From the NCBI RefSeq assembly GCF_988242995.1, contig NZ_OZ547043.1: a DNA stretch of 64,000 bases. One strand, 5' to 3'. Shown here in pieces: positions 3,894 through 56,660 of the stretch (its first letter is position 1; the number at the start of each line of letters is the position of its first letter). The position numbers and the translations under genes are program-made. Under the pieces are notes generated by a model. The model searched no databases, had not been told where the DNA came from, and saw only the letters and a program-made list of their open reading frames with translations.

Positions 3894-4603
3894 TATGTAT
3901 TCTCCTGATGGATGGTTCGGGTGAGGTAAAACTCGGCCAGTGCCAAATCTTCCGGGCGCGTGACTTTAATGTTATCCGCGCGGCCTTCGACCAACTGCGG
4001 ATGAAATCCGCAATATTCCAGCGCCGAGGCTTCGTCGGTAATGGTAGCGCCTTCATTTAGAGCGCGCATCAGGCAGTCATGTAACAGCTCACGAGGGAAA
4101 AATTGCGGCGTCAGCGCGTGCCATAAGCCGTTGCGATCAACGGTATGAGCAATGGCATTTTTGCCCGGTTCGGCACGTTTCATCGTATCGCGCACTGGTG
4201 CGGCGAGGATCCCCCCCGTGCGGCTGGTTTCGCTCAACGCCAACAATCGCGCGAGGTCATCCTGATGCAGACAAGGACGAGCGGCGTCATGCACCAATAC
4301 CCACTGCGCGTCGCCAGCGGCTTTCAGACCTGCCAGCACCGAATCGGCACGCTCATCACCGCCATCTACAACGGTGATTTGCGGATGATTCGCCAGAGGA
4401 AGTTGTGCAAAACGGCTATCGCCAGGACTTATGGCAATGACGACATGTTTCACCCGGGGGTGCGCCAGCAGCGCATGCACCGAGTGTTCAAGAATGGTTT
4501 GATTACCGATTGAGAGATATTGCTTAGGACATTCCGTTTGCATTCGACGGCCAAATCCGGCCGCCGGAACCACGGCGCAAACATCCAAATGAGTGGTTGC
4601 CAT
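3893..4603 (-). CDS. ispD: 2-C-methyl-D-erythritol 4-phosphate cytidylyltransferase
   Basis: ORF track 236 aa, [11 protein letters not shown] motif; stop/start overlap with ispF. Confidence 0.95.
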
Positions 4604-19852: not shown

Positions 19853-20005
19853 CTACTTCTTCGATTCGTAAGCGAGAACTGCCTTAAACTCCATACCACG
19901 TTCTCTGATACTCAACTCACACAACGAGTCGCCTACCATCAGCGTGAATCCCAGTACTGTACAACACAGTACGATGATTGCCACAAGGGCATATTTTGTC
20001 AGCAT
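19853..20005 (-). CDS. Hok/Gef-family type I toxin (HokE-like), 50 aa
   Basis: Hand-translated minus-strand [53 protein letters not shown]: one TM helix then the Hok signature (SLCE...IR...AYES). GGGAGG Shine-Dalgarno 6 nt upstream. Not in the ORF track (below size cut-off); the 84 aa plus-strand ORF 19796..20050 is its antisense. Confidence 0.7.
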
Positions 20006-20270
20006 GTCTTGCCTCCCTGCAAAGAAGAGACTAACATTCGAATTGCTTAGGTTCGAACGCTGGCCTCAGGTTGATAGAAATATCGCCTGGGGCTTTTGTC
20101 CATCTGGAACCTCGCGAATGCTTAACGCCAGACAGCCTCAAGCACCCAACGCCATTCTATACTTGATAATTCTTCCAGCGGCGTTCACGTTTAAAATCAG
20201 GAATGCTGCTCGCAAAATAAAAACGCCCCCATCTTTTCAGACAGAGACGTTTATTAAGCGGTACGATATT

Positions 20271-21026: not shown

Positions 21027-21063
21027 GCCTGATGCGACGCTCACGCGTCTTATCAGGCCTACA
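21027..21063. repeat. REP (repetitive extragenic palindromic) element between cysI and cysH
   Basis: GCCTGATGCGACGCTCACGCGTCTTATCAGGCCTACA, the classic REP palindrome. Confidence 0.85.
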
Positions 21064-27499: not shown

Positions 27500-27609
27500 T
27501 AGGCTGCACGCCACATCCGACATTCAGCGCCTGATGCGACGCTTGACGCGTCTTATCAGGCTTACAAGTCCCCAAGCCAGAACCGTAGGCAGGATCATCC
27601 GGCAGCACG
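27500..27609. repeat. Cluster of REP-type palindromes (BIME-like) between ygcP and ygcQ
   Basis: Central unit GCCTGATGCGACGCTTGACGCGTCTTATCAGGCTTACA (about 27529-27566) flanked by two weaker REP-like units. Confidence 0.7.
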
Positions 27610-47233: not shown

Positions 47234-49990
47234 ATGACCAACTACAGCCTGCGCGCACGCATGATGATTCTGATCCTGGCACCGACCGTCCTTATTGGTT
47301 TATTGCTGAGTATCTTTTTCGTTGTGCATCGCTATAACGATTTGCAGCGTCAACTGGAAGATGCCGGAGCCAGCATTATTGAGCCGCTTGCAGTTTCTAC
47401 TGAATATGGCATGAGCCTGCAAAATCGCGAATCTATCGGTCAGTTAATAAGCGTACTGCATCGTCGCCATTCCGATATTGTTCGCGCGATTTCGGTTTAT
47501 GATGAAAATAACCGACTCTTTGTCACCTCCAATTTTCATCTTGATCCCTCATCAATGCAGCTCGGCAGCAACGTGCCGTTTCCTCGCCAGCTCACTGTCA
47601 CTCGTGACGGCGATATTATGATCCTCCGCACACCGATTATTTCTGAGAGTTACTCCCCCGACGAATCGCCCAGTAGCGATGCCAAAAATAGTCAAAATAT
47701 GTTGGGATATATTGCGCTTGAGCTGGATCTTAAATCGGTTCGCTTGCAGCAATATAAAGAGATCTTTATTTCCAGCGTGATGATGCTGTTTTGTATCGGT
47801 ATTGCGCTTATTTTTGGCTGGCGCTTAATGCGCGATGTAACCGGTCCGATTCGCAATATGGTGAATACCGTCGACCGCATCCGTCGCGGGCAACTCGACA
47901 GCCGGGTGGAAGGATTTATGCTCGGCGAGCTGGATATGCTGAAAAACGGTATCAACTCGATGGCAATGTCGCTGGCTGCTTATCACGAAGAGATGCAGCA
48001 CAATATCGACCAGGCGACGTCCGATCTGCGTGAAACGCTGGAGCAGATGGAAATTCAGAACGTTGAGTTGGATCTGGCGAAAAAGCGTGCCCAGGAAGCG
48101 GCGCGTATTAAATCCGAGTTTCTGGCAAATATGTCACACGAGCTGCGTACACCACTGAATGGTGTTATTGGCTTTACTCGCCTGACGCTGAAAACAGAAT
48201 TAACACCAACGCAGCGCGATCACCTGAATACGATTGAACGTTCGGCAAATAATTTGCTGGCAATTATTAATGATGTTCTCGACTTCTCGAAACTGGAAGC
48301 AGGTAAGCTGATTCTGGAAAGTATTCCATTCCCACTACGCAGCACGCTGGATGAAGTCGTTACCCTGCTGGCACATTCTTCTCACGATAAAGGGCTGGAA
48401 CTGACGCTCAATATTAAGAGCGACGTGCCCGATAACGTAATTGGCGACCCACTGCGATTACAGCAAATCATCACTAACCTGGTAGGGAATGCAATTAAAT
48501 TCACCGAGAATGGCAACATTGATATTCTGGTAGAAAAACGTGCGCTGAGTAATACCAAAGTGCAGATTGAAGTGCAGATTCGGGATACCGGCATTGGTAT
48601 TCCTGAACGCGATCAATCGCGCTTATTCCAGGCCTTCCGACAGGCTGATGCCAGTATTTCCCGCCGTCATGGTGGCACCGGGCTGGGGCTGGTGATTACA
48701 CAAAAACTGGTTAATGAAATGGGCGGCGATATTTCGTTCCATAGCCAGCCGAATCGCGGTTCAACTTTCTGGTTCCACATTAATCTCGATCTGAACCCGA
48801 ACATTATTATCGAAGGGCCATCCACCCAGTGCCTAGCCGGCAAGCGCCTGGCCTATGTCGAACCAAACTCCGCAGCAGCGCAATGCACGCTGGATATTTT
48901 AAGTGAAACGCCGCTGGAAGTGGTTTATAGCCCAACGTTCTCCGCGCTGCCTCCCGCGCATTACGACATGATGTTGTTAGGCATCGCGGTGACCTTCCGC
49001 GAGCCGCTAACAATGCAACATGAGCGATTAGCGAAAGCGGTATCGATGACCGATTTTCTGATGCTGGCACTTCCTTGCCATGCACAAGTCAATGCTGAAA
49101 AACTTAAGCAAGATGGTATCGGCGCGTGTCTGCTGAAACCATTAACACCTACGCGCCTGTTACCTGCCCTGACGGAATTTTGTCATCACAAACAAAACAC
49201 GCTTTTGCCTGTAACCGATGAAAGTAAGCTGGCAATGACAGTCATGGCGGTTGATGACAACCCCGCTAACCTGAAACTTATCGGCGCATTGCTGGAAGAT
49301 ATGGTGCAACATGTGGAACTTTGCGATAGCGGGCATCAGGCGGTTGAACGGGCGAAACAAATGCCGTTCGATTTGATCTTAATGGATATTCAAATGCCGG
49401 ACATGGACGGCATTCGGGCCTGCGAGCTCATCCACCAGCTCCCCCATCAGCAACAAACGCCAGTTATCGCGGTAACGGCGCATGCAATGGCCGGGCAAAA
49501 AGAGAAGCTGCTTGGCGCAGGGATGAGCGATTATCTGGCGAAACCGATTGAAGAAGAGCGATTGCATAATTTGTTGTTGCGCTACAAGCCTGGCAGCGGT
49601 ATTTCCTCTCGCGTCGTGACGCCCGAAGTCAACGAAATTGTGGTGAACCCGAATGCGACCCTCGACTGGCAACTGGCACTACGCCAGGCAGCAGGAAAAA
49701 CCGATTTAGCGCGCGATATGCTGCAAATGTTACTCGATTTCCTGCCTGAAGTTCGCAACAAAGTTGAGGAACAGCTGGTTGGAGAAAACCCGGAAGGCCT
49801 GGTTGATTTGATTCATAAACTGCATGGCAGTTGCGGCTATAGCGGTGTGCCGCGTATGAAGAATCTCTGCCAACTGATCGAACAACAGCTACGTAGCGGT
49901 ACTAAAGAAGAAGATTTGGAGCCGGAGCTGCTGGAACTGTTAGACGAGATGGATAATGTAGCGCGCGAAGCCAGCAAAATTCTCGGGTAA
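47234..49990 (+). CDS. barA: Hybrid sensor histidine kinase BarA
   Basis: ORF track 918 aa: two TM segments, HAMP, HisKA (H-box SHELRTPLN), HATPase, receiver and HPt domains. Confidence 0.96.
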
Positions 49991-50122
49991 CGGACGTCTT
50001 GTCGAGTCAAAATAGGTTCCGTCCAATGCCAATGCTGGGAGCAGCACAGACAGTCCCCTCGCCCCTCCGGGGAGAGGGCGAGGGGGAAAACCGGCCCCGT
50101 AAACCACTTCGTCAGTAATCTC

Positions 50123-50157
50123 AAACCGACTTCTTATGAAGCCGGTTTTGGTTTTCT
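50123..50157 (+). terminator. Possible intrinsic terminator downstream of barA
   Basis: Hairpin AAACCGAC / GCCGGTTT (one mismatch) followed by TGGTTTTCT. Confidence 0.4.
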
Positions 50158-50160
50158 GTC

Positions 50161-51501
50161 TTAACGCACCATGCACGGGCGCTTGTTATCAAACGTCCAG
50201 CCAGGAATCAGATACTGCATTCCCATCGCATCGTCTCGCGCACCAAGCCCATGTTTCTGATACAGCTCGTGGGCTTTCATCACCTGATCCATATCGATTT
50301 CTACGCCCAATCCTGGTTTTTGCGGCACCTGTACCAGCCCGCCTTTGATCTCAAACGGTTCTTTGGTCAGACGCTGATTGCCTTCCTGCCAGATCCAGTG
50401 CGTATCAATAGCAGTAATTTTACCCGGTGCAGCAGCGGCTACATGAGTAAACATCGCCAGGGAAATATCGAAGTGGTTGTTAGAGTGTGAACCCCAGGTC
50501 AGGCCAAATTCATGGCACATTTGCGCCACACGTACCGAACCTTGCATCGTCCAGAAATGCGGATCCGCCAGCGGGATATCAACGGATTGTAACGAGAGCG
50601 TATGGCCCATCTGCCGCCAGTCGGTGGCGATCATATTGGTTGCGGTCGGCAGGCCAGTCGCGCGACGGAACTCTGCCATCACTTCACGCCCGGAGAAACC
50701 TTGCTCCGCACCACACGGATCTTCTGCATAAGCCAGCGAACCTTTCAGGTATTTACCAATTTTAATCGCTTCGTTCAGCGACCAGGCACCGTTAGGATCG
50801 AGGGTAATACGCGCCTGTGGGAAGCGTTGCGCCAGTGCCACAATAGATTCTGCTTCTTCTTCCCCGGCCAGTACACCGCCCTTCAGTTTGAAATCGTTGA
50901 AGCCATATTTTTCATATGCCGCTTCCGCCAGGCGCACCACCGCATCCGGCGTCATCGCTTCTTCGTGACGCAGGCGATACCAGTCACATTTATCATCCGG
51001 CTGGCTTTGATACGGCAGCGGTGTGGCTTTGCGATTACCGACGAAGAACAGATAACCGAGCATTTCGACTTCGCTACGCTGTTGACCATCGCCCAGCAGC
51101 GATGCCACGTTAACCCCCAGATGCTGCCCCAGCAGATCCAGCATTGCCGCTTCTATCCCGGTAACCACATGAATAGTGGTCCGCAGGTCAAATGTCTGCA
51201 AACCGCGCCCGCCGGCATCACGATCGGCAAATGTATTACGCACCAGCGTCAGAACGTTTTTGTATTCACCCAGCGTTTTACCCACCACCAGCGGAATCGC
51301 ATCTTCCAGCGTTTTACGGATTTTCTCGCCGCCGGGAATTTCCCCTACCCCGGTGTGACCAGAATTATCTTTGATAATCACAATATTACGCGTGAAGAAC
51401 GGTGCGTGTGCACCACTCAGATTCATCAGCATACTGTCATGGCCCGCCACCGGGATGACCTGCATTTCAGTAACAACAGGCGTCGAAAATTGAGAACTCA
51501 T
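50161..51501 (-). CDS. gudD: Glucarate dehydratase
   Basis: ORF track 50161..51525; start set at [22 protein letters not shown] (446 aa), parallel to the gudX N-terminus. Confidence 0.9.
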
Positions 51502-51521
51502 CTTTATGTCCTTTTTCAAAA

Positions 51522-52862
51522 TCAATGACGGCCGAAAACGGGACGTTTACAGTCAAAGGTCCAGCCGGGGATCAGGTACTGCATCGGGCCCGCGTCGTTA
51601 CGCGCACCCCCAGGCAGACGTTTATAGGCCTCATGCGCCTTTTGTACCTGCTCCCAGTCCAGTCCCACGCCCAGACCGGGCGCATCAGGAACGGCAATTT
51701 TTCCGTTTTTAATCTCCAGCGGATTTTTGGTCAGGCGACAATCGCCCTCCTGCCAAATCCAGTGGGTATCGATAGCGGTAGGATTACCCGGTGCCGCCGC
51801 ACCCACATGGGTAAACATCGCCAGAGAGATATCAAAGTGGTTATTGGAATGGCAGCCCCAGGTCAGCCCCCAGTCGTCGCAAAGTTGCGCCACGCGGACT
51901 GCACCGGAAAGCGTCCAGAAGTGCGGATCGGCAAGTGGAATATCTACCGCATTGAGCATCACCGCATGGCCCATTTCGCGCCAGTTGGTGGCGATCATGT
52001 TAGTCGCGACGGGCAAGCCGGTCGCCCGTCGAAACTCCGCCATCACTTCACGTCCGGAGAACCCCTGTTCTGCTCCGCATGGATCTTCAGCATAGGTAAG
52101 AACATCATTCAGCCCTTTGCACAGAGAAATGGCTTCATCAAGCAGCCATGCACCGTTGGGATCAACGGTAATCCGCGCATCCGGGAAGCGTTTCTTCAAT
52201 GCACGAACAGTGTCGATTTCTTGCTCGCCAGGTAACACGCCGCCCTTAAGTTTGAAATCTTTAAAGCCGTAGCGATCCTGTGAGGCTTCCGCCAGACGCA
52301 CAACGGCTTCGCTGTTCATCGCTTTCTGATGGCGCAACTGATACCACTCATGGTTGCCCGGCGTATTTTCCAGATAAGGAAGATCGGTTTTGGTCCGATC
52401 ACCGATATAAAACAGATAACCGAGGACGGTAATAGCCTCGCGTTGCTTGCCTGGCCCCAACAGTTCGCAGACCGGAACATTCAGCGCCTTACCTAGCAGG
52501 TCAAGCAAGGCGGCTTCCAGCGCCGCCACGGCATTAACGCGCAATTCAAAAGTCCAGGCACCTTTGCCGAAGGTATCAAAATCGGCTGCCTGATTACCTT
52601 TATGCACCTGCTGAACCACTTTATTCAGGCGCGCAACTTCCTGGCCCAACACCATCGGAATAGCATCGACCAGTGTCTGATAAATCACCTCTCCGCCTGG
52701 CGCTTCACCAATGCCGGTATGCCCGGCGTTATCGGTGAGTACCACAATATTGCGAGTGAAATATGCGTTATGCGCCCCACCAATATTAAGCAACATGCTA
52801 TCGTGCCCGGCGACCGGAATGACTTTCATATCAGTAATAACAGGACTGGATTGTGTCGTCAT
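51522..52862 (-). CDS. gudX: Glucarate dehydratase-related protein (paralogue of GudD)
   Basis: ORF track 446 aa, collinear with GudD over its length (visible in the two translations). Confidence 0.9.
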
Positions 52863-56249: not shown

Positions 56250-56292
56250 AAAGCAACCTCAATAAGAAAAACTGCCGCGAAGGATAGCAGGA

Positions 56293-56660
56293 ATAAAAAA
56301 AGGGAGCACTGTATTCACAGTGCTCCCGGTTCGTTTCGCAGCATTCCAGCTACTTTTGTTGCTCCCTGCTCATCCTTGACAACTTTTCCTCTGGCCTTGC
56401 GGCCAATCGTTCATCCTGAACTATTGCTTCCTGCTCACACCACCCCGATGTGATACTTCATCCTGAAGTGTCCCTGGCCTTCCTGACCCACCGAATCATC
56501 CTGACCGGTTCTCATTCTCCATCCTGGAGGTGTCCTTTAACGCGTCCTGCGTCATCCTCTTCGCTTCATCCAGAAGCCTTTCCCTGAAACACCATCCTGG
56601 TGTGTCCTTCAGAAGTGTCATCATCCTGATGTTCACTTCGTTGTCTGACTCCCTGTCGAC
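56293..56660 (-). ncRNA. csrB: CsrB small RNA (CsrA-sequestering)
   Basis: Minus strand carries at least 8 CAGGATG-type and about 18 GGA motifs (plus-strand CATCCTG repeats), begins GTCGACAGGGAGTCAGACAACGAAG, and ends with hairpin GGGAGCACTG / CAGTGCTCCC (56302-56327) plus U7. Length about 368 nt, matching csrB. Confidence 0.9.

Follow-up and report, generated by a model that had tools for sequence, protein, structure and literature searches.

A rare GC-rich palindrome between barA and gudD of Escherichia coli descends from an inverted BoxC pair

BoxC-type repeats and the palindrome downstream of barA

BoxC repeats (Bachellier et al., 1990s), also called PIT elements (Hoyne et al. 2000), are dispersed, GC-rich sequences of E. 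coli. A BoxC unit has three blocks: a C-block, a G-block complementary to it, and a further G-block able to add as a third strand in single-stranded DNA. BoxC (1990s), the PIT elements (Hoyne and Maher 2000, 2002) and TMECO have been treated as one family by Holder et al. 2015 (PMC4666352), who give the TMECO consensus as CCCTCNCCC-N3-6-GGGNGAGGG-N3-GGGNGAGGG and distinguish type A from type B by the second loop, which is TTA in the former and CCG in the latter. They count 63 TMECO loci; 23 copies lie in K-12, every one of them intergenic, and five A+B pairs stand in inverted orientation, without association to transposons, phages or plasmids (PMC4666352). The same authors, who studied the triplex by CD/NMR, note that purine-motif triplexes do not form in RNA, and they describe a "palindrome effect" in which paired TMECO sites often lose part of both units, allowing a stable stem-loop; it accounts for 8% of intergenic changes and is illustrated in their Fig. 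S6 at K-12 sites 1/2, 12/13 and 17/18 (PMC4666352).

Here we consider a 32-nt palindrome in the spacer between the convergent genes barA and gudD. The window, by which we mean the whole 64-kb stretch of DNA that was analysed, comes from E. coli, and the nearest complete genome over 5.6 kb is that of strain Z1323HEC0462, at 3 SNPs. The parts of the locus are as follows.

47234-49990, plus strand: barA coding sequence (918 aa; ORF list and RefSeq annotation of near-identical loci)
49991-50160, no strand assigned: barA-gudD spacer, 170 bp, short allele (allele comparison)
50024-50054, plus strand: left flank of a repeated composite element, CAATGCCAA...GCACAGACAGT (megablast and alignment)
50055-50086, plus strand: the 32-nt palindrome CCCCTCGCCCCTCCGGGGAGAGGGCGAGGGGG (sequence read directly), with a perfect 10-bp outer stem, CCCCTCGCCC/GGGCGAGGGG, an inner 3-bp stem and one bulged A
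50056-50078, plus strand: segment that stems from BoxC unit A, of type "A mm", with block 1 CCCTCGCCCC, loop TCC and block 2 GGGGAGAGGG
50075-50078, plus strand: deletion junction AGGG, a 4-bp microhomology present twice in the long allele, 70 bp apart
50079-50086, plus strand: segment that stems from BoxC unit B, which is inverted; it corresponds to the complement of that unit's block 1, CGAGGGGG
50087-50097, plus strand: right flank of the same composite, AAAACCGGCCC (K-12 pair loci have comparable ends, GGAAAAGCG and AGAAAACGG)
50123-50157, no strand assigned: conventional hairpin at 50123-50148 and T-tract at 50146-50155, shared by all alleles
50161-51501, minus strand: gudD coding sequence, stop codon at 50161-50163 (annotation via the relative at 3 SNPs over 5.6 kb)

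A preliminary description, made from the letters of the window alone, had identified a long imperfect hairpin at exactly these positions, between the barA stop and a more conventional terminator-like hairpin, and in this it was right. The 32-mer begins 64 nt beyond the barA stop (49990) and ends 36 nt before the conventional hairpin (50123), and its predicted RNA fold has a free energy of -27.5 kcal/mol on the plus strand and -26.5 kcal/mol on the minus strand, a stability matched by 0 of 200 dinucleotide shuffles on the former and by 3 of 200 on the latter (z about -2.9). In a 61-nt context around the palindrome the z-score of the fold is only -1.6, because shuffles this rich in G and C fold well too. 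A search for repeats with short arm spacing misses the element, whose stem is bulged and whose arms are only 10 nt long, and we used a custom hairpin scan instead; it found perfect stems of at least 10 bp with loops of at most 14 nt at only 6 loci in the 64-kb window, where block shuffling leads one to expect 0.6 on average, and among these 6 the barA-gudD palindrome has the highest stem GC content (90%). The preliminary description erred in calling the palindrome "G/C-only": 27 of its 32 bases are G or C (84% G+C), and there are T-A pairs within the stem. It was correct that there is no U-tract, as the next bases on either strand, AAAACCGG on the plus strand and ACTGTCTG / ACUGUCUG on the minus strand, contain no run of U or T.

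The palindrome is equally distinct from the REP elements of the window, as had also been remarked. It bears no similarity to the REP consensus (GCCKGATGCGRCG...CTTATCMGGCCTAC) and shares no motif with it, and a motif search found REP-like tails in the window at 21049-21062 and 27552-27565 only (CTTATCAGGCCTAC and a 1-mismatch variant). What the two have in common is position and composition: like REP/BIME sequences, the 32-mer is a GC-rich extragenic palindrome in a 3' UTR between convergent genes. With regard to other structured elements, there are three G-runs (GGGG, GGG and GGGGG) in 50069-50086, whereas a G-quadruplex motif calls for four runs of at least three, with short loops, so that a canonical G-quadruplex is excluded here; a canonical BoxC unit has four such runs. 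No Rfam family lies at or near threshold around the element, where only generic miRNA-like hairpins match below threshold (best 19.5 bits against 71), and for the long form described below there is likewise no Rfam family, again with sub-threshold miRNA-like hairpin matches only. In the window as a whole, the Rfam matches at gathering threshold are just two, the CsrB sRNA at 56292-56651 (minus strand, 383 bits) and sok, the antitoxin RNA of a hok/sok locus, at 19990-20147 (minus strand, 112 bits).

Spacer alleles and the deletion that produced the short form

A 570-nt query spanning the spacer matched 5,424 of 5,426 complete E. coli genomes. The middle of the spacer, however, is dimorphic, being either of REP type or of BoxC type, and the alleles can be set out as follows.

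K-12-type allele, 231 bp: one REP element; most of the 5,424 genomes
Long allele, 240 bp: inverted BoxC pair; about 188 complete genomes
Short allele (the window), 170 bp: 32-nt palindrome; 13 of 5,426 complete genomes

The short allele is thus missing from about 99.8% of E. coli genomes; strains Z1323HEC0462 and XJ6.1 are among those that have it. Six of its 13 carriers are identical to the window over a 66-nt query around the palindrome, and the other seven have one C-to-T change at 50079. We considered whether the variant with T at 50079, as seen in strain 755, might be a second, different deletion, and set this aside, a single C-to-T change being simpler. In K-12 and the majority of E. coli a REP holds the position of the palindrome. 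The same is true of three further Escherichia genomes returned by a contig search with the barA 3' end (E. whittamii, Escherichia sp. E1V33 and one more), whose spacers are all of REP type; this is a weak indication that the REP type is the older of the two and that the BoxC-type allele is derived or imported. The segment exchanged between the two types, which lies between ...GTCGAGT and TCTCAAACCG..., is swapped wholesale (BoxC type in about 200 genomes), and recombinant spacers also occur, those of TUM1886 and Ch1 combining a degenerate B unit with a K-12-like terminator stem.

The long allele, which reads ...ACAGT CCCCTCGCCCCTCCGGGGAGAGGGTTAGGGTGAGGGG AACAGGCCAACGCAAGTGCGAATGATTA CCCTCACCCCGCCCCTCTCCCTGAAAGGGCGAGGGGG AAAACCGG..., is a complete inverted pair. 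The TMECO consensus, used as a pattern, has two exact matches in it, one per strand: an A mm unit on the plus strand, which agrees at every base with K-12 TMECO no. 23 (type "A mm"), and, beyond a 28-nt spacer, a B-like unit with a GCG loop on the minus strand, which differs by 1 nt from K-12 TMECO no. 10 (type "B mm"). When spacer and short flanks are included, the pair can be aligned with the K-12 pairs at fepB-entC, ygfF-gcvP, alx-sstT and hrpB-mrcB, and as a query it has matches in 4,553 genomes, at 4 places in the median genome. The same pattern has no match in the window, where only the outer ends of the inverted A+B pair remain. The C-block, loop 1 and first G-block are common to the palindrome and K-12 TMECO no. 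23, positions 50056-50078 being identical to the first 23 nt of the latter, and the B unit's block 1 is found in complement at 50076-50085. Like the canonical units, the palindrome is intergenic and GC-rich; unlike them, it lacks a third block. The second and third G-blocks here overlap by 3 nt (GGGAGAGGGCGAGGG), so that no third strand is able to fold back, and with the third block lost only a Watson-Crick hairpin, and no intrastrand triplex, is to be expected from the sequence.

These relationships also bear on how far the palindrome can be regarded as a repeat. The preliminary description had raised the possibility of a dispersed family of GC palindromes and proposed a mismatch-tolerant, genome-wide search for further copies of the 32-mer. 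That search returned none: the exact 32-mer is single-copy, with 1 match in the 64-kb window at up to 3 mismatches, and at 95% identity or more only orthologous copies are found among 5,426 E. coli genomes. The 66-nt query, by contrast, has matches in 5,425 of 5,426 E. coli genomes, with a median of 14 places in each and nearly all of them chromosomal; across more than 5,000 E. coli genomes, the median number of places with BoxC-related sequence is 13-14, and the genomes with the short allele have 11-16 such places each. With a 42-nt core as query, the top non-orthologous matches are canonical units, ungapped and at about 92% identity, and there are no further collapsed copies. The idea of a dispersed family therefore holds as regards descent from BoxC/PIT/TMECO; it fails for the 32-mer itself, a truncated derivative that does not match the consensus and has no other copies. 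Both the family and the collapse of its pairs are already published, and the palindrome is not a new family.

The step from the long to the short allele can be reconstructed exactly. When 70 nt are removed from the long spacers of three genomes, the result is the 170-nt spacer of the window with 1 mismatch, at the first base after the barA stop. The 70-nt deletion is equivalent at five offsets, and the junction is therefore a 4-bp microhomology, AGGG. Retained are the C-block, first loop and first G-block of unit A (50056-50078) and the complement of the C-block of unit B (50079-50086); the third block of unit A, the 28-nt spacer and most of unit B are gone. The long form is typical of the family, with two full units that align with the K-12 pairs, while the short form matches them only partially, and hence it is the short form that is derived. 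In single-stranded form the long pair is predicted to fold into three helices of 9-11 bp with 3-nt internal loops between them (-35.7 kcal/mol and z -4.5 as DNA, -72.2 kcal/mol and z -5.2 as RNA), and of this fold the window keeps only the outer, or basal, helix.

In the ancestral 240-bp spacer, a type-A unit on the plus strand faces a type-B-like unit on the minus strand across 28 nt. The inversion of the partner means that the complement of unit B's C-block repeats the G-blocks of unit A in direct orientation, at a distance of about 70-76 bp. Loss of 70 bp between the AGGG repeats, presumably by replication slippage or microhomology-mediated deletion and perhaps aided by the long hairpin of the pair, fused the C-block and most of the first G-block of unit A to the complement of unit B's C-block. 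The triplex potential disappeared with the third block, and since only the basal helix of the pair hairpin is kept, what is left is a near-perfect GC palindrome without a U-tract. Direct repeats of this kind, formed by the G-blocks and the C-block complement, would ease deletions of ~70-76 bp in general, and the products are necessarily simple hairpins. Slippage or microhomology-mediated deletion is the mechanism that we infer, break repair and enzyme-mediated excision being other candidates, and beyond forming a stable hairpin the remnant would have no dedicated function.

The palindrome effect provides the closest precedent, as here too part of both inverted units is lost and a stable stem-loop stays; the difference is that the barA-gudD locus has no BoxC in K-12. 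A direct parallel is found at alx-sstT (K-12 TMECO 12/13), where 76 bp between 9-bp direct repeats, CCCTCTCCC, are missing from ATCC 25922 and related genomes, the single hairpin CCCTCTCCCCAAAAGGGGCGAGGGG being what is left. The register differs between the two sites, with a 4-bp AGGG repeat and 70 bp at barA-gudD as against 9-bp repeats and 76 bp at alx-sstT.

How often the short form has arisen at barA-gudD was approached through the SNP haplotypes of 11 loci, 7 with the short form and 4 with the long form, over 5.6 kb (47234-52862). Identity to the window across this region ranges from 98.9% to 99.9%, and the SNP patterns are mosaic, so that the region is a recombination mosaic. The short form stands on at least 2 barA-proximal haplotypes, one of which is also found in the long-form strains GF60 and 15.TR.026, and strain XJ6.1 has a spacer identical to that of the window with flanks 61 SNPs away. 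Judged from these sequences, the two short-form haplotypes would fit one deletion that recombination later spread, and equally a deletion that happened more than once.

Transcript context and the question of function

Downstream of the palindrome, the hairpin at 50123-50148 has a predicted free energy of -12.0 kcal/mol on the plus strand, with one A.C mismatch, and -15.6 kcal/mol on the minus strand, where that position becomes G.U. A simple terminator scan of 49800-50400 returned nothing, and it missed the 50123-50157 hairpin owing to the A.C mismatch; the K-12 orthologue of this hairpin is terminator-like by the same kind of scan. The hairpin is a probable bidirectional terminator for barA and gudD. 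By its position, the 32-mer is predicted to be transcribed within the barA 3' UTR, upstream of the terminator hairpin.

Several minor observations concern this hairpin. The stem-loop of the window, CCGACTTCTTATGAAGCCGG, differs from that of K-12, CCGGCTCCAGATAGAGCCGG, at several positions, one compensatory pair among them, and resembles the barA-proximal hairpin of E. whittamii, CCGGCTTCTTATGAAGTCGG (4325-4352 of the retrieved locus). Other Escherichia genomes have two terminator-like hairpins in the barA-gudD spacer, and the sequences hint at possible gene conversion between the two. Directly 3' of the palindrome, AAAACCGGC is complementary to GCCGGTTTT, which comprises the 3' arm of the terminator and the T-tract. 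The minimum-free-energy fold of 191 nt indeed uses a long-range helix of AAAACCGGC (50087-50095) with GCCGGUUUU (50141-50149) in place of the terminator hairpin. We regard this helix as probably fortuitous, given that TUM1886 and Ch1 alter both of its sides without compensation.

A strong GC hairpin between convergent genes could in principle act as a roadblock to transcription of the gudD unit (or of that of barA), or terminate it in an unconventional way, and the preliminary description had suggested a roadblock for gudD. The 32-mer does share with intrinsic terminators a GC-rich stem-loop downstream of a stop codon, but a GC hairpin followed by a U-tract it is not: a U-tract is absent on both strands, and the terminator-like hairpin comes 36 nt further on. 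Seen from gudD, moreover, the 32-mer lies downstream of that gene's own hairpin with its T-run, and it is absent from most E. coli despite an identical arrangement of barA and gudD. In the assays of Hoyne and Maher 2002, as summarised in PMC4666352, PIT elements neither acted as promoters or terminators nor affected RNA polymerase; the units assayed were canonical ones rather than the collapsed form. We thus find the roadblock scarcely tenable, and the suggestion made for gudD unsupported.

A second candidate role is that of a barrier to 3'->5' exonucleases, by which the hairpin would stabilise barA mRNA in the manner of a REP. It would come into play once an endonucleolytic cut in the A/U-richer stretch 50098-50122 had removed the distal terminator. 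It is established that REP stabilises upstream mRNA, as reported by Newbury et al. in 1987. The analogy draws on the very stable RNA hairpin (-27.5 kcal/mol, with 0 of 200 plus-strand shuffles as stable), on its place within the barA 3' UTR upstream of the terminator, and on the REP that occupies the equivalent place in K-12 and most strains. We nonetheless think such a role unlikely: the element is present in only 13 of 5,426 genomes and arose through a deletion typical of an unstable repeat, and the 3' end is already protected by the terminator hairpin.

Overall, we believe with good confidence that the palindrome is a neutral deletion relic in the barA 3' UTR and not a regulatory signal. 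This is the best-supported reading because the allele has 13 carriers among 5,426 genomes and its origin is that of a typical decay product; functional neutrality is what we infer from this rarity together with the published negative assays on canonical PIT units. There are points against it, namely the extreme stability of the hairpin, its site in a 3' UTR and the presence of at least 2 flanking haplotypes, which could reflect repeated deletion or else recombinational spread, perhaps with selection at work. The strongest form of the contrary view would make the collapse itself consequential. The duplex of the long form, lying in the barA 3' UTR, would be a possible RNase III substrate and a possible obstacle to replication. 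Conversion of this interrupted 31-bp duplex (-72 kcal/mol) into a compact 14-bp GC hairpin would then let the transcript escape RNase III while blocking 3' exonucleases, strains with short, long and REP alleles would differ in barA mRNA stability and in BarA-UvrY-CsrB signalling, and the several haplotypes would represent recurrent selection or a selected spread. We hold this to be quite improbable. If the allele did alter barA mRNA stability, the Csr regulatory circuit would be touched, but nothing that we found indicates such an effect.

Taking both parts together, we consider it very probable that the 32-mer is the collapsed remnant of an inverted BoxC pair after a 70-bp deletion, persisting as a neutral relic in the barA 3' UTR. 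As such, the locus offers a clean and fully reconstructed example of how an inverted BoxC pair decays. It also has some value for annotation, as a striking GC palindrome without a U-tract, next to the gene of a global regulator, could be taken for a hitherto undescribed regulatory element or repeat family.

The inverted pair as a composite repeat

The similarity of the long allele to other pair loci extends beyond the two units. By megablast, left-flank similarity begins at about 50040, and alignment with the four K-12 pair loci suggests that conservation reaches back to about 50024 (ATGMCAA motif); the comparison comprised K-12 loci L010 545-712, L011 955-1123, L012 565-734 and L009 513-667 together with 50024-50097 of the window. 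Besides the two 36-nt units and a conserved 28-nt spacer, AACAGGCC...GCGAA..ATTA, inverted BoxC pairs have both ends in common: on the left, an ATGACAA motif lies about 30 nt upstream and ..CAGACAGTC comes after it, and on the right the sequence is GGAAAAC/GCG. On the strength of these alignments, the true BoxC repeat unit may be about 125-160 bp long.

That pair, spacer and short flanks recur as a ~125-160 bp unit with inverted ends could also be taken to mean that BoxC pairs are mobile but non-autonomous, in the manner of MITEs or REPINs, and that the 32-mer is an enzyme-made excision scar. In favour of this, the presence of pairs varies between strains, and REPINs are likewise outlined as two inverted palindromic units (PMC3116915, PMC3337134). 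Nonetheless, no associated transposase is known, no target-site duplication was seen at the aligned loci (the long pair and four K-12 pairs), and the family is reported without transposon, phage or plasmid association (PMC4666352), in line with our own searches, which gave 3 phage records and few true plasmids. The junction at barA-gudD is a plain microhomology, and because the deletion at alx-sstT took a different register, slippage fits the two sites better than site-specific excision would. We know of no RAYT-type transposase for BoxC. For the 32-mer, then, we regard enzymatic excision as highly improbable and retain as our reading the remnant of a pair, presumably left by slippage.

In plasmid and phage collections, the BoxC pair query also matched megaplasmids of Azospirillum, Sinorhizobium and Rhizobium, at 13-15 places per record, with about 70% of the pair covered and an identity of about 75%, and two Campylobacter phage records over a 41-nt stretch at 97.6% identity. 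These matches may represent related GC-rich triplex motifs, compositional convergence or contamination.
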